From Thermoplasmata archaeon (GTDB lineage Archaea; Thermoplasmatota; Thermoplasmata; GCA-020350865): 64,000 bases of DNA. Location of the stretch: contig CP070751.1 in NCBI GenBank assembly GCA_020348445.1, positions 4,070,164 to 4,134,163 on the forward strand, read 5' to 3'. The notes beneath the pieces were generated by a model. That model was not told the DNA's origin. It worked only from the letters and a program-made list of their open reading frames with translations, and did no database searches. This document shows, piece after piece, positions 13,217 to 57,458 of the stretch (its first letter is position 1; every line of letters starts with the position of its first letter). Position numbers and translations under genes: made by a program.

Positions 13217-13241
13217 GTATTAATTTAATATAAAATTTAAG

Positions 13242-13371
13242 TGGGGCCGCCGAGATTTGAACTCGGGTATCCAGCATTTCGTATCATTTTCGAAACCGAG
13301 TTATTTTCCGGGAACTCGGTACTCAACGAAACCCCAAGCTGAGAGGATTGTCCAAGCTACCCTACGGCCCC
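13242..13371 (-). tRNA. tRNA-Pro(GGG) with a 55-nt intron at 37/38 (intron 13277-13331)
   Basis: Reverse complement folds as GGGGCCG/CGGCCCC-A acceptor stem, D-loop AGCTTGGACA, anticodon stem TCAGC/GCTGG with loop TT-GGG-G|T, T-arm CCGAG-TTCAAAT-CTCGG. Relaxed bulge-helix-bulge at the intron ends. Confidence 0.9.
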
Positions 13372-23397: not shown

Positions 23398-24567
23398 ATG
23401 CCTAGAATCGATGAGAAAAAACTAATTAATATGATAAAGGAAAAAGGACAATCCTGGAAGGCAGGCAGGACATCACTTTCAGAGCTTCCTTTCGAGGAGC
23501 AGAAAAAGCGCCTAGGACTCGCCGTAAAAAAAGAAGATTTGGAAAAGATGCGTCTGGAAATCAAGGCGGCTGTTAAGGCTTTCTCGTTTCCACAGGAATG
23601 GGATTGGAGAAATGCACGCGGGAAAAACTGGACCACATCCATAAAGGACCAATCCTCCTGTGGATCATGCGTTTCATTTGCCGTTTGTGCAGTTATGGAA
23701 TCCATGATGAAGATCGAGGAGGATAAACATGATTTGAGCATAGACCTCTCTGAAGCGCATCTCTTCTTCTGTGGATGTGGAAGATGCTGCAATACCGGCT
23801 GGACCTTTGAGCCCGCACTCGATTATGCCAAAGGCGACGGCATATCTGATGAAGCATGCTTCCCCTATAGGGCCACAGATACCAACTGTAACGAAAGATG
23901 CAGTGATTGGGATAAGAGATCCTCGAAAATAACAGAATGGAAGAAGATAACAAATGTGAGCGAGAGAAAGAACGTGCTCTCAAGTGTAGGACCGCTTGTG
24001 GGAGGAATGGCTGTATATGAGGATTTCTTTTCCTACCGAGGCGGAGTTTACAGGCACGTTACTGGAGATTTTGCTGGATATCATGCAATTGCAATCGTGG
24101 GATTCAGCGAGAGCGAGCAGTGTTGGATCTGCAAAAACAGTTGGGGTTCTGGCTGGGGTGAGAACGGCTGGTTCAAGATAGGTTATGGTGAATGCGATAT
24201 TGATACTACATTCCCAATGTACAGCGTCACGGGGATCGTTCCTGCACCTCCGCAACCTCCACAACCTGAATGTCTCATAGCCACTGCGGCTTATGGTTCT
24301 GTATTGTCACCTGAAGTTCAGTTTTTAAGGGACGTGAGGGACAACATCGTAAGAAAAACAGAGAAGGGAAACAAGTTCATGGACGACGCAGAATACGTCT
24401 ACTACAAATTCAGCCCTCAGGTCGTTTACCACATGAAAAGGAGTAAAAACTTTAAAAAGTTTGTTCGTTGGACAGTGGTTGCCCCCTTCGTCTATTCTGT
24501 GTACGGGATTATGAGGGTATTAGTGGATGACGAGAGGTTGGACAAATACAACCTTGATGAAACATGA
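23398..24567 (+). CDS. Papain-family (C1A) cysteine protease with a C-terminal CFI-box-CTERM-like domain
   Basis: QSSCGSC (oxyanion Gln and catalytic Cys), HAIAIVG (His), KNSWG..WGE.G (Asn); PAPPQPPQP linker then CLIATAAYGS...EVQFLRDVRD. Confidence 0.9.
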   Translation: MPRIDEKKLINMIKEKGQSWKAGRTSLSELPFEEQKKRLGLAVKKEDLEKMRLEIKAAVKAFSFPQEWDWRNARGKNWTTSIKDQSSCGSCVSFAVCAVMESMMKIEEDKHDLSIDLSEAHLFFCGCGRCCNTGWTFEPALDYAKGDGISDEACFPYRATDTNCNERCSDWDKRSSKITEWKKITNVSERKNVLSSVGPLVGGMAVYEDFFSYRGGVYRHVTGDFAGYHAIAIVGFSESEQCWICKNSWGSGWGENGWFKIGYGECDIDTTFPMYSVTGIVPAPPQPPQPECLIATAAYGSVLSPEVQFLRDVRDNIVRKTEKGNKFMDDAEYVYYKFSPQVVYHMKRSKNFKKFVRWTVVAPFVYSVYGIMRVLVDDERLDKYNLDET

Positions 24568-24889
24568 AGAAAAGAATTTTGGTGATCATCTGAAAATTTT
24601 ATCTGAGGACGAAGAGTCCATAGAAATAGCCTGTAGCGAGGAATTCACAATCACTTTGGATTCAAATCCAACCACAGGATATGTTTGGAAGGCGGAATTC
24701 GATGGGAATTATATTGAGCTCCTTGGAAAAACGTTTGAGCAACGATCAAGTGGGATCGGCTCAGGGGGAAAGGAGAATTTCCAATTTAAGGGGGTGAAAG
24801 ATGGCGAGACAAGTATTAAAATGATATGCAAAAGAACCTGGGAAGATGAACCCATAAAGACAAAATCATTCCTGGTGAGTATTAAGTAG
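24557..24889 (+). CDS. Protease inhibitor I42 (chagasin/ICP) family protein
   Basis: F.I.L.SNPTTGYVW, G.GG.E.F.F, KRTWE loops. Start at ATG 24557 overlapping the protease stop (track gave 24527). Confidence 0.88.
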   Translation: MKHEEKNFGDHLKILSEDEESIEIACSEEFTITLDSNPTTGYVWKAEFDGNYIELLGKTFEQRSSGIGSGGKENFQFKGVKDGETSIKMICKRTWEDEPIKTKSFLVSIK

Positions 24890-25081
24890 ATGAAAGGGGG
24901 TCGAAACTGGGGGTTTATATATTTTTTGCAAAAAATAGCTTTTATTTATACCATTTTATTAAACTCAGCGAAATTAAAACTCGAATATCGCAGATAACAT
25001 GTAAGAGCTATCTATTAACCAATAAATTTAAATACGTGAAAATAATTATGGTCAGGTCACCTTAAGTGTTATGGAAATAAT

Positions 25082-25307
25082 GGGCCCGTAGCTCAGCTAG
25101 GTAGAATATTATGATAAAATGGAAAAGTGTGAGCCATGAATATATTCCTAGAAAGAGCATCTGGCTTTTAACTGAACAATCTGGCGGTATAGAAAGTAGT
25201 AAGGACTAACAGCCGAGACCGGGTTTTTCGGCAGGAAACCAGGTGGTCGGGGGTTCGAAAAGTCTCGCCCCGATTGGAGCGGGAACTCGAAATTCCCCTC
25301 GGGCCCG
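25082..25307 (+). tRNA. tRNA-Lys(UUU) with three introns: 25103-25153 (20/21), 25171-25237 (37/38), 25260-25293 (59/60)
   Basis: Removing the three segments gives a 74-nt cloverleaf: GGGCCCG TA GCTC AGCTAGGTA GAGC A TCTGG CTTTTAA CCAGG TGGTC GGGGG TTCGAAT CCCCT CGGGCCC G. BHB-type structures at all three junctions. Confidence 0.88.
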
Positions 25308-25448
25308 TTTCCAAAATTCGCTGAGACGAAAGGACATGTGGTAGGAAAAGGTGTGGTGAGAAAATAGAAGTATGGTTTTGAAAAAGAGTCATGATAACAA
25401 GATTGAAAAAACGTGGGCAGATCGATTACAAAAATAGGGGGCTTGCTA

Positions 25449-25709
25449 ATGGTAGATGTCAATGTTATGTTACATGAATTGGTACCCGAGCACACACTTC
25501 TTTCTGAAGAAGAAGCTAAGAAGGTTTTAGAAGGTTTAAAGATCAAAGTGGATCAGCTTCCCAAAATAAGAAAGGACGATCCAGTTCTTAAGATTTTGGA
25601 GATGGTGGAGGGTGAAATTACGGAAGGGCGTATCATAAAGGTCACGAGGAGGAGCGAATCTGCAGGTGTGAGTGTAGTATACAGAATGGTTGTAGAGAGG
25701 GTGAAGTAA
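25449..25709 (+). CDS. rpoH: DNA-directed RNA polymerase subunit H (Rpo5)
   Basis: HELVPEH..L, QLPKI...DP, G..IK.TR.S...G....YR.V; ATG 25449 preferred over GTG 25413. Confidence 0.95.
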   Translation: MVDVNVMLHELVPEHTLLSEEEAKKVLEGLKIKVDQLPKIRKDDPVLKILEMVEGEITEGRIIKVTRRSESAGVSVVYRMVVERVK

Positions 25710-28700
25710 ATGCGCGAGTTAGTGGAGGCTTTTTTTAGGGAAAGAAGTATTGTGAACCATCATATCGCATCTTATAATGACTTTTTGCCCACCCCTGATA
25801 ACTTGAACAGCGGGATGCAGCGTTTGGTGGATAATATCAGGATAGGAGAGAGCGAAGATGGAAGGGGAATCATAAGACTCGAGGTGGACAAGACCAGCGG
25901 TGAAACAATCGAGATTCGAGTTGGAAGACTTAGGAATCCAAAGACAGGTGCAATCGAGCGGAATGCAAAGCCCACGGTATTTGTGGATATTCCCAAGGTA
26001 AAAGAGGCAAATGGAGCAACCCATCCCCTCACACCAATGGAAGCAAGGTTAAGAAACCTGAACTACGAGGCTCCAATATATCTTGAGTGCACAGTTGTCG
26101 AAAACGGTGTGGACAAGGAACCTGAGAGGGTTCATATCGGGAACCTACCCGTCATGGTGAAATCAAAGAAATGCAACATACACAGGGACAACATAGATAG
26201 CGAAGTTGAGCTTGCGGACGAGGAATACATAAAGCATCTGATTGGGGTTGGAGAAGATCCCTTGGATCCTGGCGGTTATTTCATAATCGGTGGAACCGAG
26301 AGGGCATTAATCTCATTGGAAGATTTAGCACCCAATAGGGTGATGGTGGAGTACAACGAGCGGTACGGACATAGGATGGAGGTGGCCAAGGTCTTTTCCC
26401 AGAGAGAGGGATATCGCGCCCTGACCTTGGTTGAGAAAAAGAGAGATGGAATGCTCATGGTCTCTGTACCAGCTGCCTCTGGTCAAATACCATTGGTTGT
26501 TCTAATGAAGGCTCTGGATATGGAAAGTGACGAAACAATTTTCGAGTCAATAGTAAGCGATCCCGAGATGGCGAACATCGTTTATGCCAATATCGAGGAG
26601 ATCCAGAACAAGAAATCCTATCCACCCAATGGGATTTTTACAACAGAGGATTCCATCCTTTACCTTGAAAAGAAGTTTGCTACCGGGCAGGCCAAGGAGT
26701 ACAGGGTCAAGAAAGTTGCATCCATTCTTGACCGTTCTCTTCTCCCTCATCTTGGTGATAGACCTGAGGACAGGCTCAAGAAGGCCATATTCCTTGGCAG
26801 GATAGCACGCACGGTTTTAGAGCTCTCGCTTGGAAAGAGAGAACCTGACGACAAGGATCACTATGCCAACAAGCGCCTGAAACTGTCTGGTAATCTCATG
26901 GAGGATCTATACAGGGTATCCTTCACAAATCTGATGAAGGATCTGAAGTATCAACTGGAAAGGAGCTTTTTAAGAAAGAAAGAGTTTAAAATCGCCTCAG
27001 CGATCAGGCCTGATCTATTATCCCAGAGACTGCTTCATGCCCTGGCAACTGGAAATTGGGTGGGCGGTAGGGCCGGAGTATCCCAGCTTTTGGACAGAAC
27101 CTGCAATATGAGCACCTTAAGTCATCTTCGGCGTGTGACATCACCTTTAACAAGAAGCCAACCTCATTTTGAGGCAAGGGACCTGCATCCCACTCAATGG
27201 GGAAGGCTTTGCCCCAACGAGACGCCGGAAGGCCAGAATTGCGGCCTGGTAAAGAACTGTACCCTCATAGTTGATGTTTCAGAGGGATTTCTTGAAGAGG
27301 AAATCAAGATGTTGCTTGCCGATTTCGGACTGAAGAAGGTGAGGGGCGAAAGGACAAAGGAAACCAGGGTTTATGTCAACGGTAATCTTGTTGGGCTTTA
27401 CGACAAACCAGAGGAACTGGTTCAGGAGGTTCGGGGAAAAAGAAGAATAGGGGCACTTTCCCACGAAGTGAACATCAGATACGATGAAAAGATGAACGAG
27501 ATTCTCATAAACTCCGACGAGGGAAGGCTTAGAAGACCTCTTCTGGTGGTTGAAAGCGGAAGGGTGCTTTTATCAAGAAAACACGTGGAGGGTTTGCATA
27601 CAGGAAAACTCAGAATAATCGACCTGATAAGAGACGGGATAATAGAGTGGATCGATGCCGAGGAAGAGGAGGACACATACATCGCGGTTTCAGCCTTTAA
27701 ACCCCCTAGTAAATGTGTCAAATGTGGTGCACATATATCAGAAAAGGACTTTATTTGGGTCAATATCGGAACCACTGATAAAAATGTAAAGCTTGAGTGT
27801 AATGTTTGCCACGATCAATTCGAGGTGGACAGTCTGCTCTCACCCGAGCACACCCATCTTGAAATCGATCCCATGGTGATCCTGGGTGCATGTACCAACC
27901 TCATTCCATACCCTGAGCACAATTCCTCTCCGAGAAATACAATGGGAGCCGGAATGGCCAAGCAATCTTTGGGATTGGGATCATCCAATTACAGGATATC
28001 CCCTGACACTAGGGGACACTTGCTGCATTATCCAGAGAGGCCCTTGGTTCAGACCAAGGCCATGGAGTACGTGAATTTCAACAAGAGACCTGCGGGCCAG
28101 AACTTTGTCGTGGCCGTGCTCTCTTACGAGGGGTATAATATGGAAGATGCCTTGGTTTTCAATAAAGCTTCCATAGAAAGAGGATTGGGGCATTCAACGT
28201 TCATGCGAACATACAGAGCAGAAGAAAGACGCTATCCTGGTGGACAGGAGGATCATTTTGAAATCCCAAGTCCAGATGTACGGGGTGCAAGAACCGATAT
28301 CTCTTACAACAACCTAGGCGATGACGGGCTAATTTCCCCTGAGGTTTATGTTGAAGGGGGGGATGTTCTTATCGGTAAAACCTCACCGCCGCGATTTTTG
28401 GAGGAGCAGCAGGATTTCCTCACACCTCAGAAGAGGAGAGAGACATCGGTTACGGTGAGACATGGCGAACATGGCTATGTGGATTCAGTAATGCTCACCG
28501 AGTCCGAGAATGGAAGCAGATTGGTCAAAGTCAAGGTTCGTGACCCACGATTCCCTGAGCTTGGAGATAAATTCGCGTCCAGACACGGTCAAAAAGGAGT
28601 CATAGGTCTTGTAGAACCTCAAGAGAACATGCCCTTTACAGCGAGCGGGATCACTCCTGATCTAATAATAAATCCCCATGCGATCCCTTCCAGAATGACT

Positions 28701-29303
28701 GTGGCACATGTTCTGGAGATGATCGGCGGTAAAGTTGGGGCAATGGAGGGGAGATTTGTGGACGGGACGGCCTTTTCCGGTGAGAGCGAGGAGGCCTTAA
28801 GACAGGGATTGATTTTTGCAGGTTTTAAGGACAATGGCAAGGAAGTCATGTACGATGGCAACACTGGTAGGATCATAGAAGCTGAGATTTTTGTTGGTGT
28901 GATATATTATCAAAAGCTCCATCATATGGTGGCAGGAAAGCACCATGTACGTTCACGGGGCCCAGTTCAGATTCTAACCCGTCAACCCACTGAAGGTAGG
29001 GCAAGGCAGGGGGGTCTGAGATTCGGTGAGATGGAGAGAGATTGTTTAATAGGTCACGGCGCTGCCATGGTGATCAAAGATCGACTCCTTGACGAGTCAG
29101 ATGGTACAGTCCAACATGTTTGCGGCAATACGGAATGTGGGCACATCGCATTGGCGGATAGGCAGGGCGCTCTCCGCTGTCCTGTTTGCGGGAACAACGC
29201 CAGTATCCATCCAATTCAAACGAGCTACGCGTTCAAGTTGCTTTTGGACGAGCTTCTTTCACTTGGTGTGGCCATGAGGCTTCAATTGGAGGATTTAAGA
29301 TGA
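25710..29303 (+). CDS. rpoB: DNA-directed RNA polymerase subunit B (Rpo2, unsplit)
   Basis: [28 protein letters not shown]-terminal Zn ribbon; extra CVKC...CNVC insertion near aa 670-700. Confidence 0.98.
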
Positions 29304-57324: not shown

Positions 57325-57435
57325 GCCGAGGTAGCTAAGCCAGGCTTAAGGCGGCAGGCTCGAGCGTTTTCCTAAGGAAAACCAAGGAACCTGTTGGTGC
57401 TTTGCACCGCGGGAGTTCGAATCTCCCCCTCGGCG
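57325..57435 (+). tRNA. tRNA-Ser(CGA) with a 24-nt intron at 37/38 (57365-57388)
   Basis: GCCGAGG/CCTCGGC-G acceptor; anticodon stem GCAGG/CCTGT with loop CT-CGA-G|A; long variable arm TGGTGC-TTT-GCACCG; T-arm GGGAG-TTCGAAT-CTCCC; intron hairpin GTTTTCC/GGAAAAC with BHB-like junctions. Confidence 0.92.
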
Positions 57436-57458
57436 CTTTTAATTATTTTACAATTGTA

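Follow-up and report, generated by a model that had tools for sequence, protein, structure and literature searches.

The locus at positions 25082-25307 of the window (the whole stretch of DNA analyzed, 64,000 nt long) is very probably a functional tRNA-Lys(UUU) gene interrupted by three introns, judging from its own sequence and from that of its orthologues. It is probably the sole Lys(UUU) gene of the genome, and it is probably essential. Multi-intron tRNA genes are treated as a hallmark of lineages with a loop-bearing splicing endonuclease (EndA), namely Crenarchaeota, other TACK archaea, Asgard archaea and ARMAN-2. In a tRNAscan-SE 2.0 census of 217 archaeal genomes, all 16 three-intron genes belonged to Thermoproteales, and Euryarchaeota had no three-intron gene and 7 two-intron genes; the three Methanomassiliicoccales genomes in that census accounted for 6 non-canonical introns and a single gene with two introns (PMC8450103, Table S7). 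Loop inserts in EndA accompany disrupted tRNA genes (Kaneta et al. 2018, PMC5829648). In the light of these two sources, a tRNA gene with multiple BHB introns was unexpected both in this lineage and with the type of enzyme described below. A three-intron, indispensable tRNA gene kept across many Thermoplasmata species with a plain two-unit EndA would be a testable exception to the co-evolution of the enzyme with tRNA disruption.

Structure of the gene and its introns

The gene occupies 226 nt on the + strand and consists of four exons. Exon 1 (25082-25102) comprises the 5' strands of the acceptor stem and the D stem and the D loop through U20. Exon 2 (25154-25170) comprises A21, the 3' strand of the D stem, the 5' strand of the anticodon stem and loop positions C32-A37 with the anticodon UUU. 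Exon 3 (25238-25259) runs from A38 through the 3' strand of the anticodon stem, the variable loop and the 5' strand of the T stem to T-loop positions 54-59, and exon 4 (25294-25307) contains U60, the 3' strands of the T stem and the acceptor stem, and the discriminator G73, with no CCA encoded at its 3' end. The exon junctions were set by the BHB rule, by which every 3-nt bulge is cut behind its second base.

ARAGORN recognized the spliced 74-mer as tRNA-Lys(ttt) and folded it into a normal cloverleaf. The acceptor stem has 7 bp and the D stem 4 bp, with G18G19 in a D loop of 9 nt; the anticodon stem (5 bp) carries the loop CUUUUAA, the variable loop is 5 nt long, and the T stem (5 bp) carries the loop UUCGAAU. 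The identity of the tRNA was assigned from UUU in a 7-nt loop, G73, the normal arms and the existence of intron-less Lys(UUU) orthologues. Over the 5'-most 26 nt, identity to the genome's own Lys(CUU) gene was 96%. In contrast to the spliced product, the unspliced gene was not detected in genomic DNA by ARAGORN or, at the gathering threshold, by Rfam, and an Rfam search of the 500-nt locus gave only noise at E<=10.

A sequence-only reading of this DNA had proposed a hidden tRNA-Lys(UUU) with BHB introns at 20/21, 37/38 and 59/60, of a kind that standard scanners often overlook, two thirds of which is intron and whose excision leaves a canonical 74-nt tRNA. The gene and its intron sites were borne out by the letters, the cloverleaf and the intron-less orthologues, and the 74-nt product by ARAGORN; introns make up 152 of the 226 nt (67%), and the gene did escape both ARAGORN and Rfam. 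An interrupted gene of this kind explains apparent "missing" tRNAs in annotations of MAGs of the clade.

All three introns were also as that reading had described them, apart from one helix. Intron 1 (25103-25153, + strand, 51 nt) lies in the D loop at 20/21. Its central helix is CTAG/CTAG with all 4 of 4 pairs formed, its bulges are GT|A and AA|A, and the 6-bp helix GAATAT/ATATTC, which had been called outer, was classed as the inner one. There is no contiguous outer helix: A14 and G15 separate the central helix from the D stem. This puts the 3' site into a 2x3 internal loop next to that stem. The motif is thus a relaxed HBh', which keeps the central helix, a good bulge on the 5' side and a single flanking helix.

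Intron 2 (25171-25237, + strand, 67 nt) is at the canonical position 37/38, and its BHB is slightly relaxed, as had been proposed. The central helix CTTT/CAGG forms 3 of 4 pairs, with one U-C mismatch, between bulges TA|A and AA|A; the inner helix CUGAA/UUCGG has 5 bp, and the 7-bp outer helix consists of the anticodon stem plus two more pairs. Save for the single mismatch in the central helix the motif is a strict hBHBh', and orthologues of intron 2 have a perfect CTTT/AAAG at this place. Intron 3 (25260-25293, + strand, 34 nt) interrupts the T loop at 59/60 and was confirmed as a perfect BHB, strict hBHBh' in every element: the central helix is TTCG/CGAA, the bulges are AA|A and AT|T, the inner helix is AGT/ACT and the 5-bp T stem serves as the outer helix.

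The minimum-energy fold of the precursor contained the acceptor stem together with all three intron helices (z = -3.1 against shuffled sequences). Since the three motifs form side by side in this predicted fold, no fixed order of intron removal would be required. The introns were also inspected by eye for a C/D box guide RNA of the kind found in the tRNA-Trp intron. Intron 1 has AUGAUAA only, without CUGA, and intron 2 has CUGA without a C box; this candidate was rejected because a C box (RUGAUGA) and a D box (CUGA) were never paired in one intron. No Rfam family matched inside the introns.

Upstream of the gene, a probable archaeal TATA box, TTTAAATA, was found at 25027-25034 (+ strand), 48-55 nt before the mature 5' end, with a conserved BRE-like GACCAATAA upstream of it. 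From its match to the archaeal TATA consensus, TTTAAATA is the probable promoter element of the tRNA-Lys gene, and its location is where an archaeal promoter would be expected if the leader is about 20 nt long. The box and the upstream GACCAATAA were invariant in four genomes of the same genus, while the remaining upstream region was 63% identical. The terminator is weak, with TTT alone 3' of the gene. Directly downstream are rpoH and rpoB (25413-29303, + strand), which carry the Pfam RNA_pol_Rpb5_C and Rpb2 domains and served as the synteny anchor. Close upstream of the tRNA gene, a gene for a papain-family cysteine protease (PF00112) is directly followed by one for a chagasin-family inhibitor (PF09394), at 23398-24889 on the + strand.

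Conservation of the introns and the host lineage

The downstream RpoB was used to fetch 80 related loci, and 30 more loci from relatives added further copies. A tRNA-Lys(UUU) gene was present upstream of rpoH-rpoB in at least 58 of the 80 loci. Intron-less syntenic orthologues differed from the predicted spliced product by only 1 base (L080) or 2 bases (L052 and L072), and the gene at L080:3651-3724 scored 73.5 bits with the Rfam tRNA model. Among 74 distinct orthologues, insertions were confined to the three sites seen in the window. With the D-loop, anticodon-loop and T-loop sites written in that order and an intron scored as 1, the occupancy was 111 in 20 genes, 101 in 27, 110 in 3, 100 in 3, 001 in 6 and 000 in 15. 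This series, in which fixed sites are filled by anything from none to three introns, offers a natural dataset on intron gain, loss and copying.

Pairing in the BHB cores (8 core pairs per motif) was 0.94, 0.86 and 0.89 across the orthologues for introns 1, 2 and 3, respectively, but fell to 0.27-0.62 in a control in which the 3' partner was slid by 1-3 nt. Double compensatory changes were frequent; for intron 1 they included CTAG/CTAG, CCAG/CTGG, GTAG/CTAC and CCCG/CGGG, and the intron strand of its central helix covaried with the D loop. The HBh' layout of intron 1 was kept in 35 distinct cores, none of which had a contiguous outer helix.

The same three introns were present in three other genomes of the genus. 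Within the genus the exons were 98-100% identical, against 63-70% for the introns and 43-63% for the flanks. Exons 1, 2 and 4 were 100% identical in the four genomes and exon 3 was 98% identical; the sole exon change, from G49 to A in exon 3, retains a pair with U65.

RpoB of the window was 72-76% identical to that of Methanomassiliicoccales and Thermoplasmata MAGs, which upholds the Thermoplasmata host suggested by the sequence-only reading. In the RpoB tree the window fell within a clade at the level of Methanomassiliicoccales (local support 87%), which comprised 20 species-level genomes. The D-loop intron was found in all 20 of these genomes, and the anticodon-loop intron in 13 of the 20 and in no other clade on the tree. 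The T-loop intron was more widely spread and had been lost several times; its state changed at least 6 times on the tree. Clades next to this one, such as the Natronoplasma group, had D-loop and T-loop introns as well, and tRNA-Lys(UUU) was intron-less in Poseidoniales, the DHVE2 group and several further clades. Among cultured relatives, a Methanomassiliicoccus species carries the D-loop and T-loop introns. This spread across the RpoB tree indicates that the three-intron state is old and conserved and is no oddity of one MAG. Beyond the census table, nothing was found in the literature on tRNA introns in Methanomassiliicoccales or Thermoplasmata: such introns are not a topic of a comparative-genomics paper on Methanomassiliicoccales, and a 2026 Asgard preprint mentions neither group.

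The splicing enzymes and the relaxed D-loop intron

One EndA locus was found in the genome (C1:548043-549128), and it encodes 362 aa. PF02778 and PF01974 each match twice in this single ORF, which gives two tandem N+C units and the alpha'2 architecture, and the Tyr-His-Lys triad aligns in the C-terminal unit only. The product is predicted to be a homodimer of the alpha'2 type known from A. fulgidus and Thermoplasma. The C-terminal unit is collinear with M. jannaschii EndA (1A79), and the best match in the PDB was 5X89, the fused loop-less M. kandleri enzyme. In the alignment, the CSL/L1, ASL/L2 and L3 inserts were all absent from the EndA of this genome: a gap of 10-11 residues stands at the place of the Crenarchaea-specific loop of A. 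pernix (3P1Z_B) and S. tokodaii (2CV8), and further gaps stand where ARMAN-2 (4FZ2) carries its inserts. A Thermoproteales-type enzyme, (alpha-beta)2 with a CSL bearing a conserved Lys, was thus not what was found in the genome; the gene found is a single two-unit one with a gap at the CSL site. Genes for RtcB and archease were also present.

Of 40 relatives, 39 gave an EndA match. In most cases the match was an ORF of two units and about 350-370 aa, also in genomes in which tRNA-Lys is intron-less. None of 30 aligned EndAs had an insert at the CSL site, and no residue there tracked the intron state. FFGK/R was considered as a determinant at the CSL site and was rejected, as it occurs in a genome with intron-less tRNA-Lys and is missing from some intron-bearing ones.

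The sequence-only reading had been right about the gene, its introns and an intron-rich lineage, but its suggestion of a possible endonuclease of broadened specificity found no support. When EndA was classified, as that reading had advised, the enzyme proved to be alpha'2 from one 362-aa two-unit gene; since this sole EndA found lacks the CSL, ASL and L3 loops, its sequence offers no visible basis for broadened specificity.

For the functional three-intron gene, maturation may be pictured as follows. Transcription from the TATA-box promoter would give a precursor of about 250 nt, from which the alpha'2 EndA would excise the BHB introns at 20/21, 37/38 and 59/60, and RtcB with archease would join the four exons. 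RNase P, 3' trimming and CCA addition would then yield the finished 74-nt tRNA, which would read AAA codons.

One step open to doubt in this scheme is the cutting of the relaxed D-loop site. It is possible, though we hold it to be somewhat unlikely, that this intron needs more than a plain alpha'2 EndA, be it a cryptic determinant in EndA, a second subunit encoded in unassembled DNA, or help from the tRNA body or a cofactor. Efficient cutting of relaxed motifs has been found only with the loop-bearing (alpha-beta)2 and epsilon2 enzymes, and an HBh' D-loop intron was reported to be a poor substrate for both the alpha'2 EndA of A. fulgidus and the loop-less EndA of M. kandleri (Kaneta et al. 2018, PMC5829648). 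Efficient HBh' cleavage is thus tied to the L1, L2 and L3 loops (PMC5829648), all absent here, and intron 1 had no contiguous outer helix in 35 of 35 distinct cores; moreover, the genome is gapped and about 82% complete, which leaves room for a second subunit. On the other hand, a single EndA locus was found, most of the 40 relatives have the same two-unit ORF, and in the 30 aligned enzymes neither an insert nor a residue of the CSL site follows the introns. Slow cleavage may suffice, moreover, since M. kandleri lives with a D-loop intron of a similar kind although its enzyme is loop-less (PMC5829648).

The M. kandleri pre-tRNA-Glu(UUC) is a close euryarchaeal likeness, with an HBh' D-loop intron at 20b/21 (almost the site of intron 1), an intron at 37/38 and a loop-less EndA (PMC5829648). 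However, its EndA is a two-subunit (alpha-beta)2 enzyme rather than the product of a single two-unit gene, and its Glu gene has two introns and is one of few such genes, whereas three introns are conserved here across a clade. Thermoproteales such as Pyrobaculum calidifontis have three-intron genes (Sugahara et al. 2007, cited in PMC9071458; PMC8450103, Table S7). Like the present gene, these hold as many as three BHB introns, in canonical as well as non-canonical positions, are missed by ordinary scanners and contain introns that recur in similar form in different tRNA genes; in contrast to the alpha'2 EndA without a loop found here, the Thermoproteales enzyme is (alpha-beta)2 with the Crenarchaea-specific loop. 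ARMAN-2 (Ca. Micrarchaeum) and Korarchaeum cryptofilum are likewise non-Crenarchaeota with many non-canonical or multiple introns (Fujishima et al. 2011, PMC3239211). The K. cryptofilum EndA also has two units, but its catalytic unit groups with the (alpha-beta)2 enzymes, and ARMAN-2 has a three-unit epsilon2 EndA with the ASL loop that is absent here (PMC3239211). A eukaryotic nuclear tRNA gene with introns in the same three arms is alike in layout, but is processed by the TSEN enzyme and has no evolutionary link to the gene described here.

As a conjecture, and not one that we regard as probable, a large Thermoplasmata clade (Methanomassiliicoccales and neighbours) may have essential tRNA genes, each present as a single copy, that keep relaxed introns in the D loop and the T loop, with a loop-less alpha'2 EndA only. 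Broad specificity of this enzyme family would then come from an undescribed determinant, or else the tRNA body would present the relaxed site as a true bulge, and T-loop introns would seem to have been copied between genes. If this is true, the accepted rule that loop-bearing EndAs alone support heavily disrupted tRNA genes would break.

Gene copy number and other interrupted tRNA genes

AAA accounted for 102 of the 235 Lys codons (43%) in six neighbouring genes, including rpoB and rpoA. By the established decoding rules, the anticodon CUU is not expected to decode AAA. Among Lys genes, ARAGORN found only Lys(CUU) in the whole genome. The sequence-only reading had called for a check that no other Lys(UUU) gene exists, and none was found in the gapped, approximately 82% complete assembly by blastn with the mature sequence, by a scan for the anticodon arm, or by inspection of a 3-kb tRNA cluster, in which the Lys copy (C1:4642408-4642532) has the anticodon CUU; all that these searches brought up were genes of the Lys(CUU) type. 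Nor was there any Lys(UUU)-like gene in two closed chromosomes of relatives (the L005 and L009 records) besides the interrupted one adjoining rpoB. The other strong match in these chromosomes was split after position 38, as with a canonical intron, and we take it to be a putative Lys(CUU) gene.

The 5.16-Mb "single contig" of the assembly is made up of 354 pieces, with a run of exactly 100 N at each of the 353 joins. An estimate puts completeness at 82%, and relatives have genomes of 1-3.7 Mb, so that both the genome size and the completeness figure need caution. With 353 gaps and 82% completeness, a second Lys(UUU) gene might still have escaped the searches. The window, however, sits within a gap-free piece of 133.5 kb.

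These gaps leave a place for a working Lys(UUU) gene in unassembled DNA, with the locus in the window as a decaying or non-functional copy, and the mismatch in the central helix of intron 2 would agree with decay. We judge this very improbable, since the exons are 98-100% conserved across the genus while the introns drift, the promoter box is conserved, the syntenic position is common to the class, and the interrupted gene is the only Lys(UUU) gene in the two closed relative chromosomes. There is next to no chance that three chosen deletions would have given a tRNA-like product from any 226-nt stretch: a loose BHB enumerator combined with ARAGORN did yield many spurious tRNAs from other intron-bearing genes, but here the junctions are fixed independently by intron-less orthologues, covariation and the contrast in conservation between exons and introns, which refute a chance match. 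The results of the enumerator were spurious for two other genes in the window; therefore, enumeration was not taken as evidence for the three-intron tRNA-Lys(UUU) gene, the junctions of which rest on the orthologues.

Two side observations concern Lys(CUU). The 5' end of tRNA-Lys(CUU) is repeated as an 18-nt copy at C1:2800970-2800987, 64 nt upstream of the Lys(CUU) gene, and a similar pair of matches was seen in the same-genus genome G001. The 3-kb cluster (C1:4640570-4643566) holds about 25 tRNA genes on one strand, some with introns and one of them Lys(CUU)-like; this dense cluster may be an array derived from a mobile element or a virus.

Other tRNA genes of the genome were also interrupted. 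About 23 of its 57 Rfam tRNA matches exceeded 90 nt, and a signature scan of the genome found a strict 59/60 T-loop intron in at least 8 tRNA genes, both of which support the view that the lineage is rich in tRNA introns. These genes were Met, Arg(CCG), Gly(CCC), Lys(UUU), Val(CAC), Cys(GCA), Arg(GCG) and Glu(UUC); seven of the positions on C1 are on the + strand (328855, 679454, 2879774, 4095412, 4300987, 5002875 and 5061898) and one is on the - strand (668314). Five of the eight genes had one or two more introns, with three in total in Arg(CCG). Within the window, the count of three intron-bearing tRNA genes with five introns agreed with the sequence-only reading: three introns in Lys(UUU), one of about 55 nt in tRNA-Pro(GGG) (13241-13371, - strand), which ARAGORN miscalled as Phe, and one canonical intron of 24 nt in tRNA-Ser(CGA) (57325-57436, + strand), which has a class-II variable arm and was miscalled as Pro(CGG).

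Intron copying between tRNA genes has been proposed for Thermoproteales. In the present genome, the core of the Lys T-loop intron (25261-25287) was identical at 19 of 22 positions to the T-loop intron of Cys(GCA) (C1:5002886-5002912, L116), and the T-loop introns of Gly(CCC) and Glu(UUC) were about 85% identical. For both pairs, none of 20,000 shuffles equalled the score. Orthologous Lys introns were only 56-66% identical between genomes of the genus, which is below the likeness of the Lys and Cys introns. Comparison of these sequences suggests that T-loop introns may have been copied or converted between tRNA genes, in the Lys/Cys and the Gly/Glu pairs. The Cys introns of the same-genus genomes had the same ends as the Cys intron of the window genome.
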